Of a DNA stretch of 64,000 nt, positions 1 through 63,494 are shown one piece after another; position 1 is the first letter of the stretch; each line of letters begins with the position of its first letter. The notes under the pieces were generated by a model that saw nothing but the letters and a program-made list of their open reading frames with translations, was not told the DNA's origin and did no database searches. Source of the stretch: Arenicellales bacterium (GTDB lineage Bacteria; Pseudomonadota; Gammaproteobacteria; Arenicellales; Poriferihabitantaceae); contig OY843749.1 in the NCBI GenBank assembly GCA_963693025.1, forward strand, positions 2,573,617 through 2,637,616, written 5' to 3'. The translations under genes were made by a program, and so were the position numbers.

Positions 1-1212
1 GTGGTGCGGTTGCGTGGGTCGTTGCAGCCCGAATGCACCTATGCCCGCCGCGGCGCGATTAAGTTGTGGGCGTTGATACACGGTGCGGCGAACAAGGGTT
101 ATGTGAATTGCCTCGGCGCGCTGACCGCGGGGCAGGCGGTGCAGCAAGCCAAGGCCGGGATTGAGGCGATTTACCTGTCGGGCTGGCAGGTGGCGGCGGA
201 TAACAACAGCTCCGAGACGATGTATCCCGACCAGTCGTTGTATGCGTATGACTCGGTGCCGACCGTGGTGCGGCGCATCAACAACGCCTTTGCGCGCGCC
301 GACCAGATACAGTGGCAGCGGGGCGTCGAGGAAGGCGAGCCGGGTTATGTGGATTATTTTCTGCCGGTGGTCGCCGATGCGGAAGCCGGTTTCGGCGGCG
401 TCTTGAACGCGTTTGAATTGGCGAAAAATATGATTACCGCCGGCGCCGCCGGGGTGCATTTTGAGGACCAGTTGGCGGCGGTGAAAAAGTGCGGGCACAT
501 GGGCGGCAAGGTGTTGGTTCCGACCGAAGAGGCGGTGCAAAAACTGATTGCGGCGCGGCTGGCGGCGGATGTGATGGGCGTGCCGACCCTGCTTCTGGCG
601 CGCACCGACGCCGAGGCGGCGAGCCTGCTGACTTCCGACATTGACGAGCGCGACAAACCCTTCCTCACCGGCGCGCGCTCTTCGGAAGGATTTTTCCGCG
701 TCAACAACGGCTTGGAGCAAGCCATTTCGCGCGGCGTCGCGTACGCCGCCTACGCCGACATGGTGTGGTGCGAAACCGGCACGCCGGACTTGGGTTTTGC
801 CCGCGAATTCGCGCAGGCGGTGCAAGCCGAACATCCGGGTCAGTTGCTTGCCTATAACTGCTCGCCGTCGTTCAACTGGCGGAAGAATTTGGACGATAAA
901 ACCATCGCTTCATTTCAGGATGAACTCGCGGCGATGGGTTACGCCTACCAGTTCATCACCCTCGCCGGCATTCACAGCATGTGGTACAACATGTTCGACC
1001 TCGCGCACGGATACGCCCGCGGCGAGGGCATGCGCCACTATGTTGACAAAGTTCAGCAGCCCGAATTTTCCGCCGCCGACGAAGGCTACACTTTTGTCGC
1101 GCACCAGCAGGAAGTCGGCGCCGGCTACTTTGACGACGTCACCGTCACCGTTCAAGGCGGCGCCTCGTCGGTGACCGCGCTCGCCGGGTCAACCGAAGAA
1201 GAGCAGTTTTAG
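1..1212 (+). CDS. aceA: Isocitrate lyase, N-terminus truncated by window edge (about 30 aa missing)
   Basis: ORF 1..1212 open to position 1. Carries the ICL signature KKCGHMGGK and the C-terminus [15 protein letters not shown]. Collinear with E. coli AceA from about residue 33. Confidence 0.95.
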
Positions 1213-1315
1213 CGCGCGAGTTCGGCGCGCATTTCCACCGCCAACCGAGCAACCGAGCGCCGCCGAAACGCGATTCCGGCGGCGCTCGGGCGCTCGCAAC
1301 CGCAAGGGCTCGCGT

Positions 1316-3073
1316 ATGAGCGCCGACCTCGTTAAGCAAATCGCCGGCACCATACTGGAAGGGTTCAACCGCCACTTCTCGCTCTTCCAACAAATCACGC
1401 GCGCCGCCCGGGAGCGCTTTGAGGCGGCTGACTGGGAGGGCGAAATCGCGGCGCGCACGGAGCGCATCTACTACTACGACCTGCGCGTCAACGAAGCGAT
1501 TGACAATCTCAACCGGCGCTTCGACCTCGACAAACTCGACAAGAAGTTGTGGCAGGATATTAAGCGCTGGTATATGTGGCTGCTGTATAACCACAAACAG
1601 CCGGAACTGGCGGAGAGTTTTTACAACTCGGTGTTCTGCCGACTGTTCGACCGAAGTTACTTCAACAACGACCACATCTTCGTCAAGCCCGGCACCGCCA
1701 TCGACTACCTCGACATGGACGACCCGGCTTATACGGGTTATTACCCGGACGAGTGCGGCATCCGCGACACGTTCAGCACGATTCTGCAGAGTTTCGGTTT
1801 GCGCCTTGCGTGGGAAGACCTTGAGCGCGACCTCGACCTCATCGCCGACACTTTTGAGCCGGTGTTGCATCCCGATGTCATCCCGGCGCCGCACCGGCAA
1901 CTGCATGTGGTGTCGTCGTTGTTCTACCGCAACAAAGCGGCGTATGTGGTCGGTCGCGCGCTGGTCGGGGTCGACAGCCAGCCGTTTGTCGTGCCGATTT
2001 TAATCAACGATGACATGCGGTTATACGTCGATACGATTCTCACCGAGGCCGATGACCTGGCGCTGATTTTCAGTTTCACCCGCGCCTACTTTATGGTTAA
2101 TACGAAGGTGCCGGCGGGGCTGATTACTTTTCTGCAATCCATCCTGCCGAGCAAAACGCGCGCCGATTTATACACCAGCATCGGCTTCCAGAAGCAGGGC
2201 AAGACGCTGTTCTACCGTGAATTTTTGCATCATCTGGAGCACTCCACCGACAAACTGATTACCGCGCCGGGCATCAAGGGCATGGTGATGAGCGTGTTCA
2301 CGCTGCCCTCATATCCGTATGTGTTCAAGGTCATCCGGGACAGTTTCGCGCATCCCAAAAAAACCGACCGCGCCACGGTCAAGCAGAAATATCTCACCGT
2401 GAAAATGCACGACCGCGCGGGGCGCATGGCAGACACCTTGGAGTTCTCCCATGTCGCCTTCCCGGTCGACCGCTTCTCCGATGCGTTGCTCGGCGAATTG
2501 AAAAATGAAATCACATCGAGCATGTATATCGAGGGCGGGTTCGTGATTATTCGCCACCTGTATATCGAACGCCGCATGGTGCCGTTCAACATTTTTCTCG
2601 ACCACGCCAACGACGAGATGCTCGACCGCGGCGTGATTAGTTACGGCAACGCCATCAAGGAAATGATTGCCGCCAATATCTTTCCCGGCGACATGCTATT
2701 GAAAAACTTCGGCGTCACCCGCCAGAACCGCGTGGTGTTTTACGACTACGACGAAATCTGCCGGATGAATGAGATCGTGATTCGCTCCCTGCCCAAAGCG
2801 CGCAACGAAGAAGAGGAAATGGCGGGCGAGCCGTGGTTCCACGTCGGCGAAAACGATTTTTTTCCGCAGCAGTTTGAGTCTTTCGTCGCCAACCATCCCA
2901 AGTTCAAGGAGCGCTTCCTGGCGCATCACGCCGACTTGCTCGACCCCGCCTACTGGAAGAAGGTGCAAAACGACATTCTGCAAAACACGCGCTACGATGT
3001 GTTTCCGTACCGCCAACACAAACGCTTCCGCCACCGCTATCCGAACAGGTATCCGGCGGCGGACAAGCCTTAG
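1316..3073 (+). CDS. aceK: Isocitrate dehydrogenase kinase/phosphatase
   Basis: 585-aa ORF directly downstream of aceA. The N-terminus (ILEGFNRHFSLFQQIT) and the overall length fit the AceK family. Confidence 0.9.
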   Translation: MSADLVKQIAGTILEGFNRHFSLFQQITRAARERFEAADWEGEIAARTERIYYYDLRVNEAIDNLNRRFDLDKLDKKLWQDIKRWYMWLLYNHKQPELAESFYNSVFCRLFDRSYFNNDHIFVKPGTAIDYLDMDDPAYTGYYPDECGIRDTFSTILQSFGLRLAWEDLERDLDLIADTFEPVLHPDVIPAPHRQLHVVSSLFYRNKAAYVVGRALVGVDSQPFVVPILINDDMRLYVDTILTEADDLALIFSFTRAYFMVNTKVPAGLITFLQSILPSKTRADLYTSIGFQKQGKTLFYREFLHHLEHSTDKLITAPGIKGMVMSVFTLPSYPYVFKVIRDSFAHPKKTDRATVKQKYLTVKMHDRAGRMADTLEFSHVAFPVDRFSDALLGELKNEITSSMYIEGGFVIIRHLYIERRMVPFNIFLDHANDEMLDRGVISYGNAIKEMIAANIFPGDMLLKNFGVTRQNRVVFYDYDEICRMNEIVIRSLPKARNEEEEMAGEPWFHVGENDFFPQQFESFVANHPKFKERFLAHHADLLDPAYWKKVQNDILQNTRYDVFPYRQHKRFRHRYPNRYPAADKP

Positions 3074-5423: not shown

Positions 5424-5688
5424 CGTCATTCTCGAGCGTTAGTGTCCGTTGCCGCCGCGCTTTTTCTTTTAAGCGGCGGCTTACGGACACTTACGTCCTC
5501 GGGAATCTCCCTAAGACTGGCACGGGCTTTGTTGAAATTCACGGTAGCCTTAGGGAGATTCCCGAAGGCGATGAAAAATCCGCCCGGAGCGGATTTTCGC
5601 GTAGCCCGAAGGGTTTGTATCAGGGATGATACAAACAAAAATATGGTCGCCTAGCGGCTCCCTATTTTTCTATCGTTCGAGAATGACG
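5424..5688 (+). mobile_element. MITE-like TIR element, long form (265 bp, with nested about 57-bp module)
   Basis: Left end CGTCATTCTCGAGCG at 5424 and right end CGTTCGAGAATGACG at 5674-5688 (15-bp TIR, 1 mismatch). Hairpin 1: GTGTCCGT..GCCGCCGC / GCGGCGGC..ACGGACAC. Hairpin 2: GGGAATCTCCCTAAG / CTTAGGGAGATTCCC. Confidence 0.85.
5580..5636 (+). repeat. Nested two-hairpin mini-module inside the MITE
   Basis: CCGCCCGGAGCGGATTTTCGCGTAGCCCGAAGGGTTTGTATCAGGGATGATACAAAC is absent from short-form copies. It is flanked by AAAAAT on both sides. Confidence 0.75.
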
Positions 5689-6412
5689 GAATGGGGAGCG
5701 CCTTCGCCCGCCACCGCCGCGCTTCGGTTGGGCTCATCACCAGCGGGCGGTAAATCTCGACTCGGTCGTGGTCGGTCAGCACCCAGTCGAGCGGACGCTC
5801 AACCCCGAAAATGCCGACCGGCGTCTCCGCCAGATTGAGGCGCGGAAACTGGCGCAGCACGGATGAAGCGCGAATCGCCTGCTCAATGGTGGCCGGCGGG
5901 CTCAGCTCCAGTTGCTCGACCACCTGCCGCTCCGGTAGCGCATAGACCACCTCCGCGCTAATTTGTTCCGGGCGGCGGGGGTTGCCGTGGACTTGACGGG
6001 CGCGCTTGACGAAGGAATCGACCATCGAATCGGCGATGTGTTTGAACACCGGACCGACCACCGCGCCGGTCAGCGCGCTGGAAAAATCAAAGCGCAGGTC
6101 GAGCGCAATCCGGCATGCGCCGGGCTGCAGCGACTTGAATTCCCAGACGCCGGACAACTCGCTGAACGGACCATCGAGCAGCGTCATTTGGGTCTGCTCA
6201 AAAGGCGTCAACCGGTTGCGCGTGGTGAACGATTGGCTGACCCCGCGAAACGCGATATGCACGCGCGCGACCACCTCGCGCTCGCCCCGCTCGAGCACTT
6301 CGGAGGCGCCGCACCACGGCAGAAACTGCGCGTAGGATTCTATATCGTTGACCAGCGAGTACATCTCCTCGGCGCTGTGCATGACCAGCGCCGAACGCGC
6401 GATGGTATACAT
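5651..6412 (-). CDS. In-frame fusion of RatA-like SRPBCC protein (YfjG) and RnfH (YfjF) ubiquitin-fold protein
   Basis: The N-terminal half ([34 protein letters not shown]...) resembles RatA. The C-terminal half ([15 protein letters not shown]...DRVEIYRPL) resembles RnfH. There is no stop and no start codon between the halves. The last about 12 codons and the stop lie inside the MITE at 5424-5688. Confidence 0.8.
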
Positions 6413-6497
6413 GGAAGGCAAGCCTCGGCGGACAAAAAGGGTGCGCTCCATTATACTGCATGCCCCGTGCAACCGAATACCCACCCGACCGGGGCCC

Positions 6498-6977
6498 ATG
6501 GCGAGCAAAAAGAAATCCGCGTCCGACACCAACACCATCGCGCTCAACCGAAAAGCCCGGTTTGATTATTTCATCGAGCAGGAGTTCGAGGCCGGGGTGG
6601 CGCTGCAGGGCTGGGAGGTGAAGAGCCTTCGGGATGGCCGCGCGCAGTTGAAGGAGAGTTATGTCGTCGTTATCCGCGGCGAACTCTTCCTGATTGGCGC
6701 GCACTTCTCGCCGTTGCGCTCGACCTCGACGCATGTCAACCCCGACCCCACCCGAAGCCGCAAGTTGCTACTCCACAAAAAGGAAATCGGCAAACTGGTC
6801 GGCGCGACCGACAAGGCGGGCTACACCCTCGTGCCGCTCAGCCTGTATTGGAAGCACGGCAAAGTCAAAGCCAAAATCGCGCTGGCAAAGGGCAAAAAGC
6901 AATACGACAAACGCCACACCATCAAGCAGCGCGAATGGGAGCGCGACAAACAGCGGCTGTTCAAATCGCAGCAATGA
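6498..6977 (+). CDS. smpB: SsrA-binding protein
   Basis: [45 protein letters not shown] is classic SmpB. Start chosen at ATG 6498 within ORF 6348..6977. Confidence 0.95.
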
Positions 6978-7102: not shown

Positions 7103-7467
7103 GGGGGTGACTGGCTTCGACGTCGGTCACGAAGCCATCGGAGCATGCCGAGGCGCAGACTACCTCGTAAATCCACCTGCAACACAATAGTTGCCAACGA
7201 CGACAACTACGCGCTAGCCGCTTAATCCGGCTGGCCCTTTCACTCGGCTCGCCTTTAGGCTGAGGCTCGAAAGGTCATCAATAAAGGCTCGCGAGCCAGG
7301 CCCGTCCGTTGTCTGGCAGTTAAAACTGATCGGACTCGCCGGCGTGTGCGTTTGTCTGCCTACTTTCACGCCGGTCAACTCAAAGCGCAGACTAAGCATG
7401 TAGCAGCCGGTGTGTGTAGGATCAGCGGACGCGGGTTCGATTCCCGCCACCTCCACCAGACACGCGC
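7103..7467 (+). ncRNA. ssrA: tmRNA (SsrA)
   Basis: 5-prime end GGGGGUGACUGGCUUCGACG. Tag reading frame GCCAACGACGACAACTACGCGCTAGCCGCTTAA encodes ANDDNYALAA*. 3-prime end GGGTTCGATTCCCGCCACCTCCACCA. Adjacent to smpB. Confidence 0.95.
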
Positions 7468-9039: not shown

Positions 9040-9492
9040 CTAGGTTTCAAGGCGCGGCTCTCCGGCAAGGTATGACCGCCCCGGATTGACATTGAATGTT
9101 TTCATAATGGCGGTGCGCCCCAGCAGCATCCGAAACTTCATCGAGTTGCGGTTGGTGAGGGTGATTTCAATCTCCTTGTTGAACGCGCCAATCACCACCG
9201 GCGTGCGGATGACCACCCGGTTTTCCTTGCCGCCGCCGGAGTTGGTCACCCACCGGCTTTCAACAATATCGGCGACGCATTGGTTGCCGGGTCCCCGCTC
9301 GCCCTTGGCCGTAAACAACTCAAAGCGAACCCGGCGCACCCCGCCCTCGTCAAATTCCTCCATCCACACGGTATCCAACGCCGAAGTCCGCGCCCCGGTA
9401 TCCACCTTGGCCCGAATCCGCCCAACCCCAAGCCCCGGCAACGCCACCCACTCACGCCATCCGAGCAAAGGTTTGGGTTTTCGGGTGGTCAT
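9040..9492 (-). CDS. Retropepsin-like / DUF785 putative protease commonly paired with rimK
   Basis: 150 aa containing AKVDTGARTSAL, an aspartic-protease-like DTG motif. Lies immediately upstream of rimK on the same strand. Confidence 0.7.
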   Translation of the reverse strand: MTTRKPKPLLGWREWVALPGLGVGRIRAKVDTGARTSALDTVWMEEFDEGGVRRVRFELFTAKGERGPGNQCVADIVESRWVTNSGGGKENRVVIRTPVVIGAFNKEIEITLTNRNSMKFRMLLGRTAIMKTFNVNPGRSYLAGEPRLET

Positions 9493-29301: not shown

Positions 29302-29512
29302 CGTCATTCTCGAGCGTTAGTGTCCGTTAGTCGCCGCGCTTTTTCTTTTAAGCGGCGGCTTACGGACACTTACGACCTCGGGAATCTCCCTAAGATTGGC
29401 ACGGACTTGAACAAAGCCGTTGCGAGCTCAGCGCCAACCTTATGGAGATTCCCGAATCGAAGAAAATATGGTCGCCTAACGGCTCCCTATTTTCTACCGT
29501 TCGAGAATGACG
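29302..29512 (+). mobile_element. MITE-like TIR element (211 bp, divergent hairpin-2 loop)
   Basis: CGTCATTCTCGAGCG at 29302 and CGTTCGAGAATGACG at 29498-29512. The right arm of hairpin 2 is CTTATGGAGATTCCC. Confidence 0.85.
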
Positions 29513-29718: not shown

Positions 29719-29728
29719 GGGTTGGGGA

Positions 29729-29758
29729 CTCCCTATTTTCTACCGTTCGAGAATGACG
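29729..29758 (+). repeat. Solo right end of the MITE
   Basis: CTCCCTATTTTCTACCGTTCGAGAATGACG with no matching left part. Confidence 0.8.
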
Positions 29759-35073: not shown

Positions 35074-35104
35074 CGTCATTCTCGAATGGTAGAAAATAGG
35101 GAGC
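35074..35104 (-). repeat. Solo right end of the MITE (reverse orientation)
   Basis: CGTCATTCTCGAATGGTAGAAAATAGGGAGC. Confidence 0.8.
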
Positions 35105-35112
35105 CGCAACTT

Positions 35113-35375
35113 CGTCATTCTCGAATGATAGAAAAATAAGGAGCGATAGCGACTATATTTTTCATCACCTTCGGGAATCTCCCTAAGACTACCGTGAATT
35201 CCAACAAAGCCCGTGCCAACCTGAGGGAGATTGCGCGTATCGTCCCTGATACGCGCCCTTCGGGCTACGCGAAAATCCGCTCCCGGCGGATTTTTCCCGA
35301 GGACGCAAGTGTCCGTAAGCCGCCGCTTAAAAGAAGAAGCGCGGCGGCAACGGACACTAACGCTCGAGAATGACG
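35113..35375 (-). mobile_element. MITE-like TIR element, long form (263 bp), nested module at a different internal site
   Basis: CGTCATTCTCGAATG at 35113 and CGCTCGAGAATGACG at 35361-35375. Here the module sits between hairpins 1 and 2, instead of between hairpin 2 and the right end. Confidence 0.85.
35233..35289 (-). repeat. Nested two-hairpin mini-module, variant with compensatory stem changes
   Basis: The stem is GCGCGTATC/GATACGCGC here versus GTTTGTATC/GATACAAAC in the other three copies: three paired substitutions. Confidence 0.8.
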
Positions 35376-35927: not shown

Positions 35928-38636
35928 ATGCTGCAACACGCCCTCAAAAAATTCTTTGGCGACCGCAACCAGCGGCTGCTGAAAAACATCGGCAAGACGG
36001 TCGAGCGAATCAACGCGCTGGAGACCGGCTTGTCCGCGCTTGACGACCGCGCGTTGGCGGCGAAGACCGGCGAATTCCGCGAGCGCATTGCCGCCGGCGC
36101 GCACAAGGATGAGTTGCTCATCGAAGCCTTTGCGGTGGTGCGCGAGGCGTCGGTGCGCGCGCTTGGGTTGCGCCACTTCGATGTGCAACTGGTCGGCGGC
36201 GTGGTGCTCAACAACGGCAAAATCGCCGAGATGAAGACCGGCGAGGGCAAGACCCTGGTCGCCACTTTGCCGGCTTACCTGAACGCGCTCGCCGGCATTC
36301 CGGTGCATATCGTCACCGTGAATGATTACCTCGCGCGGCGCGACGCCGACTGGATGGGGAAGATTTACCAGTTCCTCGGGCTGAGCGTGGGCGTGATTTT
36401 GTCGGGGCAGGACCCGGCGGAAAAAAGGGCGGCTTACCAAAGCGACATCGTCTATGGCACCAACAACGAGTTCGGCTTTGACTACCTGCGCGACAACATG
36501 GCGTTCACCGCCGAAGACCGCTTCCAACAGGGGCTCGGTTTCGCCATCGTTGACGAGGTCGATTCAATCCTCATCGACGAAGCCCGAACGCCGCTCATCA
36601 TCTCCGGTCCCGCCGAGGAAAGCACCGACCTGTATACCCATATTAACCAAATCGTGCCGCAACTCGAGCGCCAGGAATCCGAAGACGGTCCGGGCGATTT
36701 CACGCTGGATGAAAAAAGCCGGCAGGCCTACCTGACCGAGCAGGGGCATGAAACCGCCGAGAAACTGCTGGTCGGCGCCGGGCTGTTGCCGGAGGGCGGC
36801 AGCGTGTATGAGATTGGCAACATCAGCCTAATTCATCATCTGTATGCGGCGCTCAGGGCGCACAATTTGTTTCACCGCGATGTCGCTTATATCGTGCGCA
36901 ACGACCAAATCATCATCATCGACGAGTTCACCGGGCGGATGATGCCGGGCAGGCGCTGGTCGGACGGGCTGCATCAGGCGATTGAAGCGAAGGAAGGCGT
37001 GACCATTCAGCAGGAAAACCAGACGCTGGCGTCGATTACCTTTCAGAACTACTTCCGGTTATACCAAACGCTCGCCGGCATGACCGGCACGGCGGACACC
37101 GAAGCGCCGGAGTTTTTGCAAATCTACCAACTTGAAGTGGTCATCATCCCGACCAACCGACCGATGGTGCGCACCGACGACGCCGACTTGGTGTACCGCA
37201 CCGGCGAGGAAAAGTTCGCGGCGATTATCGAGGGCATTGAAGACTGCCGACGGCGCAACCAGCCGGTGTTGGTCGGCACCGCTTCCATTGAATCATCCGA
37301 GCGCCTCGCCGACATGCTGAACAAAGCCGGCATCGCGCACAAGGTGTTGAACGCCAAACACCACGGCGAGGAAGCGCAAATCATCGCCGAAGCCGGGCGC
37401 CCCGGCACCGTCACCATCGCCACCAACATGGCAGGGCGCGGCACCGACATCGTGCTCGGCGGCAATCTCGAACTGGAACTCGGCGGTTTGTCGGACGACG
37501 CCGAAATAGAGCAAGCGCGGGGCGCGTGGGAGCAGCGCCACCGGCAGGTAATCGACGCCGGCGGATTGCACGTGCTCGGCACCGAGCGGAACGAATCGCG
37601 CCGCGTTGACAATCAGTTGCGCGGGCGTTGCGGTCGCCAGGGCGACCCCGGCTCAAGCCGCTTCTACCTGTCGCTGGAAGACAACCTGATGCGAATTTTC
37701 GGCTCCGAGCGAATCGCCGGGCTGATGCACAAACTCGGCATGGAAGAGGGCGAGGCGATCGAGCATCCGTGGGTCACGCGCGCCATCGAGAACGCGCAGA
37801 CCAAAGTGGAGGGGCATAACTTCGATGCGCGCAAGCAACTGCTTGAGTATGACGATGTGGCAAACGAGCAGCGCAAGGTGATTTACGAGCAGCGCGACAT
37901 GCTGATGGAGACCGATGACATTTCCGAATACATCGACTTCACGCGGCGCGAGGTGACCGCCGAGGTCATCGACCGCAGCCTCGCGCCCAACAGCCTGGAA
38001 GAGCAGTGGGATGTGCCGGCGCTCACGCAGGACTTGGAAACTTCGTTCGGGGTCAAACTGCCGCTGGCCGAATGGCTTGAGCAAGACGAGTCGTTGCACG
38101 AAGAAACCCTCAGGCAGAAAATCGAGCAATCCATCGCCGACATGCTCGCCGCCAAGGAAGCGCGCGTCGGTGCCGAAGGCATGCGGCATTTTGAAAAGGC
38201 GGTCATGCTCAAGGTGCTGGACGAGCAGTGGAAGGAGCATCTGTTCAATATGGACCACCTGCGCCAGGGCATTCACCTGCGCGGCTACGCCCAGAAAAAC
38301 CCCAAACAGGAATACAAGCGCGAGGCGTTTGAGATGTTTACCGCGCTGCTGGAGAATGTCAAATTTGAAGTCACTTCAATGCTGGCGCGCCTGCACATTC
38401 CGAGCGAAGAAGAGATAAACGAAATGGAAGCGCGCCGGCGTCAACAGTCGATGCGCTTCGTCCACGCCGAAGCCGAAACCCCGGCTGCGGAGCCCAACAC
38501 TCCCCAACCCCGCCCCCGCGCCCGCCCCGCTTCCGCCGACCAACCCTTCGTTCGCAAAACCAAAAAAATAGGCCGCAATGATCCGTGTCCGTGTGGTTCG
38601 GGGAAGAAGTATAAGCAGTGTCATGGGCGGGGGTGA
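35928..38636 (+). CDS. secA: Preprotein translocase ATPase SecA
   Basis: 902 aa. [20 protein letters not shown] and the C-terminal zinc motif [14 protein letters not shown]. Confidence 0.97.
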
Positions 38637-38708
38637 GGGTGGTGTGGATTTTCGCGAAGTTCGGAGGGTTTGTGTCAAGGGCGATACAAACCAAAATTCC
38701 CAACTACT

Positions 38709-38968
38709 CGTCATTCTCGAGCGTTAGTGTCCGTTGCCGCCGCGCTTTTTCTTTTAAGCGGCGGCTTACGGACACTTGCGTCCTCGGGAATCTCCCTAAG
38801 ACTGGCACGGGCTTTGTTGAAATTCACGGTAGTCTTAGGGAGATTCCCGAATCGAAGAAAAATCCGCCCGGAGCGGATTTTCGCGTAGCCCGAAGGGTTT
38901 GTATCAGGGATGATACAAACAAAATATGGTCGCTGACGCTCCCTATTTTCTACCGTTCGAGAATGACG
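38709..38968 (+). mobile_element. MITE-like TIR element, long form (260 bp)
   Basis: CGTCATTCTCGAGCG at 38709 and CGTTCGAGAATGACG at 38954-38968. Nested module at 38865-38920. Confidence 0.85.
38865..38920 (+). repeat. Nested two-hairpin mini-module
   Basis: Same sequence and same insertion point as 5580-5636, flanked by AAAAT. Confidence 0.75.
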
Positions 38969-38981
38969 GGTATTTATAACT

Positions 38982-39178
38982 CGTCATTCTCGAGCGTTAG
39001 TGACCGTTGCCGCCGCGCTTCTTCTTTTAAGCGGCGGCTTACGGACACTTGCGTCCTCGGGAATCTCCCTAAGATTGGCACGGGCTTTGTTGAAATTCAC
39101 GGTAGCCTTAGGGAGATTCCCGAAGCGAAGAAAATATGGTCGCTGACGCTCCCTATTTTCTACCGTTCGAGAATGACG
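38982..39178 (+). mobile_element. MITE-like TIR element, short form (197 bp)
   Basis: CGTCATTCTCGAGCG at 38982 and CGTTCGAGAATGACG at 39164-39178. Spacer to the previous copy is GGTATTTATAACT. Confidence 0.85.
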
Positions 39179-39261
39179 GGGTTGTTGTTTTTGGTTTGTT
39201 ATTTTTGGTTTGTTGTTTGTTGCTGGTTTGTTTTATGTTTGTCGTTAGGCAGTAAGAAACA

Positions 39262-40506
39262 ATGAACCCTCCCCCCATTAAAAAATCCCCCCTAGCCCCA
39301 GCGGCTTTCCCCGAATTGCCGCCAATCCCCGGTGTGCAGTTGGCAACAACCGAGTCAGGTGCCAAGTATCGCGGACGGGACGATTTGATGTTGGCGGTGG
39401 TTGAGTCAGGCGCGACCGTTGCCGGGGTGTTGACGCAATCTACCACCGCCGGTGCGCCGGTGCGGTGGTGCAGGCGGCAACTGGAGGCGGAAAACGCGCC
39501 GCGCGCGTTGCTGGTCAACGCGGGCAACGCCAACACCTTTACCGGCGCAGCCGGCGACCGGCATTTGCTGGACACCTGCCGCGCGGTGGCGGCGGCGCTG
39601 GGTTGCGAGCCCGAGCAGGTGTTGGCGGCGTCCACCGGGGTGATTGGCGAGGCGTTGCCGGTGGATGAAATCGTGCGCGCCGTGCCGCATTTGGCATCAA
39701 AGTTGAGCGACGATGCATGGGAGCGCGCCGCCGCCGCGATTATGACCACCGACACCTTCGCCAAAGGCACCACCGCGCGCGCCACGATTTCGGGGCGGTC
39801 GGTGACCATCAACGGATTCGCCAAAGGCTCGGGCATGATTGAGCCGAACATGGCGACGATGCTCGCCTTCCTGTTCACCGACGCGGCCATTCCGCGCGCG
39901 GTGTTGCAGCCGATGCTGACCGCCGCCAACGCGCAATCGTTCAACGCCATCACCGTGGACGGCGACACCTCGACGAGCGATATTTGCCTGCTGCTGGCGA
40001 CCGGCAAAGCGGGCAATCCGCCGCCCGCCTCCGTTGCCGACGACACCCTCGACGAGTTCAAGCGCGCGCTCGACGAGGTGATGTTGTCGCTCGCCTTGCA
40101 GGTGGTCGGCGACGGCGAAGGCGCGCAAAAATTAATCCGCGTGGAAGTGCGCGGCGGCGAAAACGACCGCGCCGCCAAGGCGGTCGCCAAGGCGGTCGCC
40201 AACTCGCCGCTGGTGAAAACCGCCATCGCCGGCGAAGACGCCAACTGGGGGCGCATCGTCATGGCGGTCGGCAAGTCGGGGCAGCGGGTCGAGCCGGCGC
40301 GGCTCAAAATCGCCATCGGCGGGGTGCCGGTCACCGAAGCGGGCAAGCGCATCGACGGCTTTGACGAGGCGCCGCTGAGCGCGCACCTTAAGGGCAGGGA
40401 GATTGCAATTGAGGTGGATTTGGGGCTGGCGGACGGTTGCGCGCGCGTCTGGACTTGCGACCTGACCCACGGCTACATCGACATCAATGCCGACTACCGC
40501 TCCTGA
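39262..40506 (+). CDS. argJ: Bifunctional glutamate N-acetyltransferase / amino-acid acetyltransferase
   Basis: 414 aa. Autoproteolytic site region GSGMIEPNMATMLAFLFTDA. Confidence 0.93.
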   Translation: MNPPPIKKSPLAPAAFPELPPIPGVQLATTESGAKYRGRDDLMLAVVESGATVAGVLTQSTTAGAPVRWCRRQLEAENAPRALLVNAGNANTFTGAAGDRHLLDTCRAVAAALGCEPEQVLAASTGVIGEALPVDEIVRAVPHLASKLSDDAWERAAAAIMTTDTFAKGTTARATISGRSVTINGFAKGSGMIEPNMATMLAFLFTDAAIPRAVLQPMLTAANAQSFNAITVDGDTSTSDICLLLATGKAGNPPPASVADDTLDEFKRALDEVMLSLALQVVGDGEGAQKLIRVEVRGGENDRAAKAVAKAVANSPLVKTAIAGEDANWGRIVMAVGKSGQRVEPARLKIAIGGVPVTEAGKRIDGFDEAPLSAHLKGREIAIEVDLGLADGCARVWTCDLTHGYIDINADYRS

Positions 40507-57066: not shown

Positions 57067-57266
57067 CGTCATTCTCGAATGATAGAAAAATAAGGAGCGA
57101 CAGCGACTATATTTTTCATCACCTTCGGGAATCTCCCTAAGGCTACCGTGAATTTTACCGAAGCCCGTGCCAACCTGAGGGAGATTCCCGAGGACGCAAG
57201 TGTCCGTAAGCCGCCGCTTAAAAGAAGAAGCGCGGCGGCAACGGACACTAACGCTCGAGAATGACG
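57067..57266 (-). mobile_element. MITE-like TIR element, short form (200 bp), reverse
   Basis: CGTCATTCTCGAATG at 57067 and CGCTCGAGAATGACG at 57252-57266. Confidence 0.85.
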
Positions 57267-57274
57267 AGTTGTAG

Positions 57275-57305
57275 CGTCATTCCCGAACGGTAGAAAATAG
57301 GGAGC
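57275..57305 (-). repeat. Solo right end of the MITE (reverse)
   Basis: CGTCATTCCCGAACGGTAGAAAATAGGGAGC. Confidence 0.8.
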
Positions 57306-57315
57306 CCCCCAACTT

Positions 57316-57580
57316 CGTCATTCTCGAATGATAGAAAAATAAGGAACGACAGCGACTATATTTTTGTTTGTATCATCCCTGATACAAACCCTTCGGGCTA
57401 CGCGAAAATCCGCTCCCGGCGGATTTTTCATCACCTTCGGGAATCTCCCTAAGGCTAGCGTGGACTTTCAACAAAGCCCGTGCCAGTCGTAGGGAGATTC
57501 CCGAGGACGTAAGTGTCCGTAAGCCGCCGCTTAAAAGAAAAAGCGCGGCGACCAACGGACACTAACGCTCGAGAATGACG
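57316..57580 (-). mobile_element. MITE-like TIR element, long form (265 bp), reverse
   Basis: CGTCATTCTCGAATG at 57316 and CGCTCGAGAATGACG at 57566-57580. Nested module at 57366-57422. Confidence 0.85.
57366..57422 (-). repeat. Nested two-hairpin mini-module
   Basis: Reverse complement of the 5580-5636 module at the equivalent insertion point. Confidence 0.75.
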
Positions 57581-57604
57581 AAGTTGTGGTGGTGGCGGCG
57601 GCGG

Positions 57605-57629
57605 CGGACACTAACGCTCGAGAATGACG
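57605..57629 (-). repeat. Solo left end of the MITE (reverse)
   Basis: GGACACTAACGCTCGAGAATGACG, ending 7 nt before the infA stop codon. Confidence 0.8.
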
Positions 57630-63180: not shown

Positions 63181-63190
63181 AAGTTGGGGG

Positions 63191-63221
63191 CTCCCTATTT
63201 TTCTATCGTTCGAGAATGACG
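63191..63221 (+). repeat. Solo right end of the MITE
   Basis: CTCCCTATTTTTCTATCGTTCGAGAATGACG. Confidence 0.8.
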
Positions 63222-63433: not shown

Positions 63434-63443
63434 GGCTTTTTGT

Positions 63444-63475
63444 CGGCTCCCTATTTTCTACCGTTCGAGAATGAC
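63444..63475 (+). repeat. Solo right end of the MITE
   Basis: CGGCTCCCTATTTTCTACCGTTCGAGAATGACG. Confidence 0.8.
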
Positions 63476-63494
63476 GAGGAGTTCCCTTTCTTTA

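Follow-up and report, generated by a model that had tools for sequence, protein, structure and literature searches.

A 63-nt hairpin-folded module nested in a MITE and a possible family of very small insertion elements

Some copies of a MITE in a gammaproteobacterial chromosome contain an extra module of 63 nt, and we consider it probable (about 0.6) that this module belongs to an undescribed family of very small (62-77 nt), hairpin-folded, non-autonomous insertion elements that are mobilised in trans. A sequence-only reading had described the module as an element that moves independently of its host, and its separate insertion is borne out by four observations: it occupies two different sites in the MITE, a tandem unit has been gained among related strains, one copy lies outside any MITE and other copies are present in genomes that are free of the MITE. 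Against mobility, the modules inside the MITEs of the source lineage are always at the same two sites, and their spread among MITE copies could also come from gene conversion between MITEs.

If this reading is correct, bacteria would have a mobile element comparable in size to one terminator, small enough to escape the repeat and RNA-family catalogues, and yet one that splits tRNA genes and nests in transposons. It would also provide a clean case from nature in which selection acts on the structure of a DNA hairpin rather than on its sequence, and part of the widely used E. coli rrnB T1-T2 region would be explained as a duplicated 5S 3' end into which a module has inserted. A bolder view is that the modules are a new class of ultra-small, structure-defined mobile DNA, with three hairpins, no inverted ends and a G/AA target (here and below the slash marks the insertion point), which crosses phyla, enters tRNA and rRNA genes as well as transposons, is moved by an enzyme so far linked to none of the known repeat families and has the E. 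coli rrnB T1-T2 spacer as its fossil. We put this forward tentatively, as possible and still doubtful. The spacer is presumably also carried on common E. coli cloning vectors.

The host MITE and its long form

The window (the whole 64-kb stretch of DNA that was analysed) has a G+C content of 61.8% and is a segment of a gammaproteobacterial chromosome that includes aceA-aceK, amtB-glnK, smpB, tmRNA, the dcw cluster with ftsZ-lpxC, secA, argJ, suf genes, murA, hisDC, ftsY and gdh. The tmRNA gene (7103-7458, plus strand, 214.8 bits, tag VANDDNYALAA) adjoins smpB (6348-6977) and was the only Rfam match at the gathering threshold.

The host repeat is a MITE of about 200 bp with the ends CGTCATTCTCGA. 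This end sequence has 32 matches in the window versus 0.45 expected, and 12 full copies of the MITE are present. Four of the 12 are about 63 bp longer than the rest and each of them has the same extra module, while both module sites are empty in eight copies. For annotation purposes, what distinguishes the "long" from the "short" MITEs of this family is thus a separable unit.

The module and its anatomy

All four long MITEs carry the 23-mer GGATTTTCGCGTAGCCCGAAGGG, which occurs four times in the window compared to 0 expected (100 shuffles). The four copies, the two internal MITE sites and the three swapped base pairs that the sequence-only reading had noticed are all confirmed in the window (Table 1), and some of its details change. 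The unit had been given as 57 bp; it is in fact 63 nt because the A-run AAAATCCGC pairs with the T-run GCGGATTTT in hairpin 1 (H1), and so the AAAAAT belongs to the unit. A copy start at 38865 was off by one. The focal module had been placed between hairpins 1 and 2 of the MITE; it does occupy the second internal site, but its position is not simply between the hairpins, as it sits four base pairs inside the stem of hairpin 2.

The unit consists, in order, of one A, H1 with a CNGGA loop, a core with the mini-hairpin H2, and H3, which has a 9-bp stem and the loop AGGGAT. Three of the window's modules are in site 1, between GATG and AAAAATAT or between GAAG and AAAATAT, and one is in site 2, between CCTCGGG and AATCTCCC. 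The H3 arms are GTTTGTATC/GATACAAAC in the three site-1 copies (TTTG-type) and GCGCGTATC/GATACGCGC in the site-2 copy (CGCG-type). With its A-tract, GC stem and T-tract, H1 looks like a bidirectional terminator by sequence; a terminator scan did not flag it.

When all of the copies described below are included, the anatomy of the family can be summarised as follows. H1 is an A-tract, a GC stem, a CNGGA loop and a T-tract; the core is CGCG(T/CA)AGCCC-GRA-GGG; and H3 begins with G-T, has an A(N)GGA(N) loop and ends with A-A-C. The core can change, as indicated by the variants CGCGCAAGCCCGAAGGG (L015), CGCGCAAGCCCCGGAGGGG (L006) and CAACGGCCCGGAGGG (E. coli), and the invariance of its 19-20 nt elsewhere is partly an artefact of the exact-match bait used to find the copies. 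(Strain loci and outside contigs are referred to by L numbers.)

A fifth, degenerate module lies outside any MITE, directly after the secA stop codon, and has lost the 5' arm of H1. Matching cmsearch hits are located just downstream of secA in the related loci L012 and L014.

Table 1. Module copies, the parts of the focal copy and selected host MITEs. Positions refer to the window unless an accession or locus is given.
Feature	Position	Strand	Evidence
Focal module, 63 nt, site 2, CGCG-type H3	35233..35295	-	cmsearch 91.6 bits, E 8e-20
H1 of focal copy, AAAATCCGC-CGGGA-GCGGATTTT	35272..35294	-	6/9 pairs covary; minimum-energy fold with DNA parameters
Core CGCGTAGCCCGAAGGG with mini-hairpin H2 (CCC-GAA-GGG)	35256..35271	-	identical in 4/4 window copies
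H3 of focal copy, GCGCGTATC-AGGGAC-GATACGCGC, three swapped pairs	35233..35256	-	7/8 H3 pairs covary across lineages
Host MITE of focal copy, 263 bp (about 200 bp minus module), lpxC-secA interval	35113..35375	-	end and copy comparison
Module, site 1 of MITE 5424-5688, TTTG-type H3	5574..5636	+	92 bits
Module, site 1 of MITE 38709-38968, TTTG-type H3	38858..38920	+	92 bits
Module, site 1 of MITE 57316-57580, TTTG-type H3	57366..57428	-	93.5 bits
Degenerate module outside any MITE, directly after secA stop codon, GTGGATTTTCGCGAAGTTCGGAGGGTTTGTGTCAAGGGCGATACAAAC	38640..38697	+	cmsearch 32.5 bits, E 1.7e-5
Short MITE, both sites empty (CTCGGGAATCTCCC, GATGAAAAATATAG)	57067..57266	-	copies compared in one orientation
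Proposed diverged module, rrnB/rrnD T1-T2 spacer	NC_000913.3 ~4171838-4171914 (L009 339-415); L007 599-673		model score and alignment

Insertion sites and boundaries

Because the short MITEs read GATGAAAAATATAG and CTCGGGAATCTCCC at the empty sites, each junction can be described as 63 nt placed at N/AA with at most AA duplicated, i.e., the duplication at insertion is 0-2 bp and only AA is possible. The AAAAT/AAT flanks had been taken for a target-site duplication, and this does not hold: the A-run on the left forms the 5' arm of H1 and moves together with the element, and the rest is pre-existing target. The ends of the module, AAAAATCC.. and ..CAAAC, are not inverted repeats. Insertion occurs in one orientation at N/AA, mostly with G at position -1 (G/AA). 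Viewed on the reverse strand, each copy is preceded by ..TT (ATT, GTT or TTT) and itself ends in ..TTT, a specificity of 2-3 nt only.

The targets are hairpin-prone DNA, namely, MITE arms, tRNA loops and a 5S fragment. A rule that the module targets hairpin loops was considered and is true of the tRNA cases described below, but both MITE sites are in the 5' arm of a MITE hairpin, outside the loops. Two other ideas were also rejected. A 3-bp AAC duplication would leave a 9-nt anticodon loop in an interrupted tRNA gene, whereas an exact 62-nt deletion restores the tRNA; and base pairing by H3 does not guide the choice of target, as H3 has no complementarity to either one. The module can be precisely absent, and it can land beside its own A-run, which produces head-to-tail tandems.

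Related strains

Exact-protein look-ups with LpxC, P-II and MurA led to 11 syntenic loci of 20-21 kb, all from a single ENA metagenome assembly in which several strains co-exist; further look-ups of the same kind found no more strain loci. Across these loci, site 1 always contains a TTTG-type module (12 cases, including the upstream unit of a tandem) and site 2 always contains a CGCG-type module (seven cases), with 0 mixed arm combinations. Both sites are filled in one 329-bp MITE (L015 11513-11841).

An orthologous truncated MITE has a single CGCG unit in L015 and the two units [TTTG][CGCG], head to tail, in L012 and L013. The tandem units differ at the six swap positions only. The difference between the strains is the precise gain or loss of one 63-nt unit.

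Other loci also differ among strains. The first full MITE after lpxC has a site-2 module in the window and in L015 and none in L010, L012, L013 and L014; the backbone of the L010 MITE is near-identical to the window copy, and the others show scattered differences. The rnfH-dksA spacer varies as well: a MITE with a module is present in the window, an empty one in L017 and a truncated one in each of L018 and L020, and L019 is without a MITE. Module density ranges from 0 per ~21 kb (L010, L011, L019 and L020) to seven (L015). At least six MITE backbone haplotypes include copies with a site-1 module, and every one of the six or more also includes empty copies; MITEs at the same locus in different strains fall into different sub-haplotypes. 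Since the backbones are mosaic, repeated insertion and MITE-MITE gene conversion are inseparable on the strain data. If the module is mobilised in trans, the co-existing strains, with 0-7 copies per ~21 kb, would offer a practical route to the mobilising enzyme through a comparison of gene content between those rich in copies and those free of them.

In three of these strains, the lpxC-secA interval contains two additional ORFs of 576 aa and 510 aa, with MITE pieces on either side (L012 11720-15499 and the equivalents in L013 and L015). These ORFs have no Pfam hit on record, nothing transposase-like was seen in them and, by eye, their products look like multi-pass membrane proteins.

Copies beyond the source lineage

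Few independent lineages, about six, were sampled outside the source. One exact-match scan each of genome and metagenome collections, with the 19-20-nt core as bait, found true copies in five places: a Gammaproteobacteria MAG with two modules in tandem (L001), two Bdellovibrio genomes with a single module each (L002 and L003) and two metagenome contigs (L005 and L006). The match in L004 was a chance 19-mer inside an SDR gene. The MITE ends are absent from all six, L001-L006. The host G+C contents of the module-bearing genomes range from 40 to 65%, and H1 and H3 of the outside copies have other sequences with the same architecture. In L001, just upstream of the tandem modules, there is an extra GTTTGG..CCAAAC hairpin followed by GGG (620-648); by its sequence, it may be what is left of the H3 of a third unit that has decayed.

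Several of these copies are in tRNA genes. L006 is a dense 1.4-kb tRNA array, with seven called tRNAs and odd tRNA-like units at 519-813. One of its modules is in the anticodon loop of an uncalled tRNA, and when 62 nt (244-305) are removed, ARAGORN calls a tRNA-Arg(TCG). A second copy, found by the covariance model only (62.9 bits), is in the T-loop of another tRNA. The two L006 tRNAs split by a module are at 205-341 (+) and 1251-1375 (+); the copies are in opposite orientations relative to their host tRNAs, the anticodon-loop copy antisense and the T-loop copy sense. A blastn search of phages and plasmids for an uninterrupted allele of the array found only generic tRNA similarity. In L005, the 3' end of a tRNA-Phe is duplicated and has the module in its T-loop.

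A more distant relative may be present in E. coli. H1 is identical over 21 nt to the rrnB T1-T2 sequence in E. coli, Salmonella and Klebsiella (blastn). The 77-nt T1-T2 segment of E. coli scores 48.9 bits with the covariance model, of which only the ~19 bits that remain beyond H1 are independent support, as the locus was fetched by its H1 match. This segment has the identical 21-nt H1, the box GCCCGGAGGG, an H3 loop AGGAC and an extra GTTGC-GAAG-CAAC hairpin, and without it the flanking sequences can be aligned with the 5S 3' end and T1 (GAGTAGG-GAACTGCCAGGCATCAAAT...). On this alignment, we take the segment to be a diverged copy of the module that interrupts a duplicated 5S 3' end and terminator. 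Of 5426 E. coli genomes, 3945 contain the segment, and the rrfB-murB spacer in which it lies has no annotated feature in K-12.

Other searches gave little. Three core variants had 0 matches in a scan of viral contigs, and plasmids and phages, searched by blastn with three variants of the module, returned only the H1 21-mer in enterobacterial rrn trailers and vectors. A protein-word search for spurious ORFs that translate the module gave four candidates, none of them scored, and Rfam at E<=10 on L001 600-820 gave a best score of 20.8 bits versus a gathering score of 112. The core, searched on either strand as DNA or RNA, had no match in a full-text literature search, and topic searches returned nothing relevant. 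The covariance-model E-values quoted here are rough.

Hairpin structure and covariation

Two alignments of distinct copies were made, a hand-checked one of 11 and a model-based one of 13. The sequence-only reading would have been undermined by stem variants that are unpaired in most copies of a larger alignment; the opposite was seen. Among the 13 copies, 97.3% of the cells are paired and 13 of the 20 pairs change on both sides, so compensatory change maintains the hairpins. None of 500 column shuffles was as high, and slid structures are also far lower. H1 and H3 form the minimum-energy DNA fold on both strands, with z-scores of -5.9 and -6.3.

The 13-copy alignment has 50 double-sided cells versus one G.U cell (of 258). 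Structured RNAs usually show many G.U intermediates. Because the changes are almost all from one Watson-Crick pair to another, the constraint on the stems would be at the DNA level, or on both strands, and we infer from this pattern that the hairpins are selected, probably as DNA rather than as RNA. The loops, which are outside the bait, are also conserved: GGA is kept in the loops of H1 (CNGGA) and H3 in all lineages, with the H3 loop of L018 (AGGGGT) the sole exception among the 13 distinct copies, and H2 has GRA. In H3, a tandem G.A/A.G mismatch is retained by L005 and by the two L006 copies. This mismatch is favourable on a single strand, the opposite of the one that fits the TT target rule.

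The three-pair swap in the window had been taken as direct evidence of selection on the stem. Pairing is indeed kept, but there are only two alleles, without intermediates, and they are fully linked to the site. By itself, the swap would therefore be weak evidence of selection, and it is the covariation across lineages that carries the claim. Furthermore, the CGCG arm repeats a CGCGTA found 16 nt upstream, and so one templated change followed by a hairpin-templated correction could yield the swap without stepwise selection; one or two templated events could account for it. We prefer to see the swap as marking a second, CGCG-type sub-lineage that is tied to site 2, and this tie is most likely due to linkage by descent.

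A possible mechanism and comparison with known elements

We envisage that a hairpin-folded, single-stranded copy of the module would be mobilised in trans by an enzyme encoded elsewhere. The closest fit would be an HUH/IS200-IS605-like reaction on the strand in which the target is ..TT and the element end is ..TTT. The element's own end would then mimic the target, which would explain the head-to-tail tandems. Alternative routes would be a 2-bp crossover by a serine recombinase or an RNA-mediated process, in which a transcript of the reverse strand would have H1 plus U5 at its end.

A RAYT or an IS200/IS605 TnpA had been suggested as the enzyme to look for. A Pfam scan of the window ORFs found neither of these (RAYT, PF01797), nor an integrase or reverse transcriptase, and these enzymes were also absent from the Pfam lists for the genes called in 12 related loci (~250 kb, partly overlapping) and from the ORFs beside the L001, L002 and L005 copies. 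Likewise, serine and tyrosine recombinases and Y1/RAYT proteins were found neither in the window nor next to the copies elsewhere.

The module has much in common with IS200/IS605 PATEs, which are also non-autonomous, have no terminal inverted repeats, little or no target duplication and hairpins at both ends, insert in one orientation beside a short motif (..TT in the case of the module) and leave precise empty sites. However, the module is only 63 nt, its target is 2-3 nt rather than the PATE tetra- or pentanucleotide and no TnpA(Y1) was found. In IS608-type ends, the hairpins are alike and the cleavage sites are outside of them, whereas H1 and H3 of the module have dissimilar sequences and loops. 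H3 begins directly at the first base, and the terminal T-run is part of the H1 stem; any cleavage sites would thus be in or against the stems, unlike those of PATEs.

An affinity to REP-type sequences had also been suggested. Like REPs, BIMEs and REPINs, the module is a short extragenic unit of covarying hairpins that can occur in tandem, and its commonest core has GTAG followed by a small palindrome. But GTAG, present in CGCGTAGCCC, is not conserved among the module variants: GCAAG replaces it in L015, in L001 copy 2 and in L006 copy 2, and CAACG replaces it in E. coli. Together with the lack of a RAYT or IS200/IS605 TnpA in the genes checked, this speaks against the affinity. REPs are also species-specific, while the module core is common across phyla, has no inverted REP pair and enters tRNA genes and MITEs. 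Because some of the defining features of both groups are missing, we keep the module apart from PATEs and REPs and file it as a small non-autonomous hairpin repeat outside both families.

Other systems show more limited likenesses. The BOX A-B-C elements, nested MITEs and Rickettsia palindromic elements are structured units that are present or absent in a larger repeat, form tandems and occur in RNA genes (the Rickettsia elements occur in the tmRNA gene), but BOX and the Rickettsia elements are lineage-restricted and without the three-hairpin core, and the module also occurs alone in unrelated genomes. Integron attC sites (57-141 nt) resemble it as structure-defined, sequence-variable hairpin DNA with single-strand recombination and head-to-tail arrays. 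An attC site, however, is one long imperfect hairpin with RYYYAAC...GTTRRRY, in contrast to the separate hairpins of the module, in which H3 has GTT...AAC, the opposite order; no integrase was found near the module in the window or related loci. Classical MITEs, including the host MITE, have TIRs, whereas the module has neither TIRs nor a fixed target-site duplication.

Alternative explanations

The distribution of the module could also be explained if it had entered the MITE twice long ago, once per site, and is now a passive passenger that is carried by MITE transposition or shuffled by conversion or recombination, without being mobile any longer in this lineage. The strict linkage between variant and site, with 0 mixed cases among 19 (12 TTTG and seven CGCG), fits this well, as does the finding of no transposase in the window ORFs, and conversion must be active because the MITE backbones are mosaic and same-locus MITEs fall into different sub-haplotypes. 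Nevertheless, a TTTG unit gained before the resident CGCG unit at the truncated MITE is hard to obtain by conversion, the non-MITE copy after secA is unexplained, and so are the insertions in the tRNA genes and the 5S fragment of other genomes. At least 3-4 past mobility events of the module would still be needed, and we regard this explanation as unlikely.

We think it less likely again that the module is kept for its transcript, with the hairpins selected as RNA. One strand would then be a small RNA ended by H1 and U5, and the other a CsrA/RsmA-binding unit with two or three sites. The CsrA/RsmE consensus is ACARGGAUGU / CANGGANG, and the conserved GGA in the loops of H1 (CNGGA) and H3 (C-A(N)GGA(N)-G), ~38 nt apart, fits it, as binding RNAs of this kind have two or more GGA motifs in hairpin loops at a spacing of 10-63 nt; in addition, H1 is a GC stem between A- and T-tracts, and both Bdellovibrio genomes and the majority of E. 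coli rrn trailers keep a single copy. Against an RNA function are the near absence of G.U pairs noted above, the presence of copies in both orientations relative to host genes and tRNAs, and the absence of H1 from the minimum-energy RNA fold of the GGA strand; H1 was also passed over by the terminator scan, and Rfam gave no match even at E<=10. Finally, the copies placed exactly in a tRNA anticodon loop and in T-loops, which are typical positions of tRNA introns and integrase targets, bring to mind an intron-like intervening sequence that self-splicing or nuclease excision would take out of the tRNA or rRNA transcripts, leaving the interrupted genes functional. This is very improbable: one L006 copy is antisense and one sense to its tRNA, the Rfam searches matched neither ribozymes nor introns, the boundary features of group I and group II introns are lacking and most copies are in MITEs and intergenic DNA.

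Other features of the host MITE

The host MITE is modular in other ways as well. Its hairpin 2 has at least four alternative loops, and some copies have another hairpin insert of 26 nt (CCCCGCTAACACACTGCGGGGGCATG) after hairpin 1; examples of such modularity are at window 29302-29512, L010 5342-5557, L015 15949-16240 and L012 13640-13665(-). Stubs of ~40 bp that consist of the MITE right end only (CGTCATTC.CGAA.GGTAGAAAATAGGGAGCC..) abut full MITEs in the window, at 35074-35112 and 57275-57315 and, likewise next to MITEs, at 29719-29758, 57581-57629, 63181-63221 and 63434-63476. They look like partial or aborted copies.

A DDE_Tnp_1 IS of the IS4/IS5 type in L018 (16329-17744) was considered as the obvious parent of the MITE and was rejected, as it has its own inverted ends with no match to the MITE ends; it is merely inserted inside a MITE-like hairpin. 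In L018 and L020 (~9250-9370), a truncated MITE abuts the 3' end of an rnfH-family coding sequence. Tandem MITEs also give rise to spurious long ORFs, e.g., one of 215 aa after secA (window 38618-39265).
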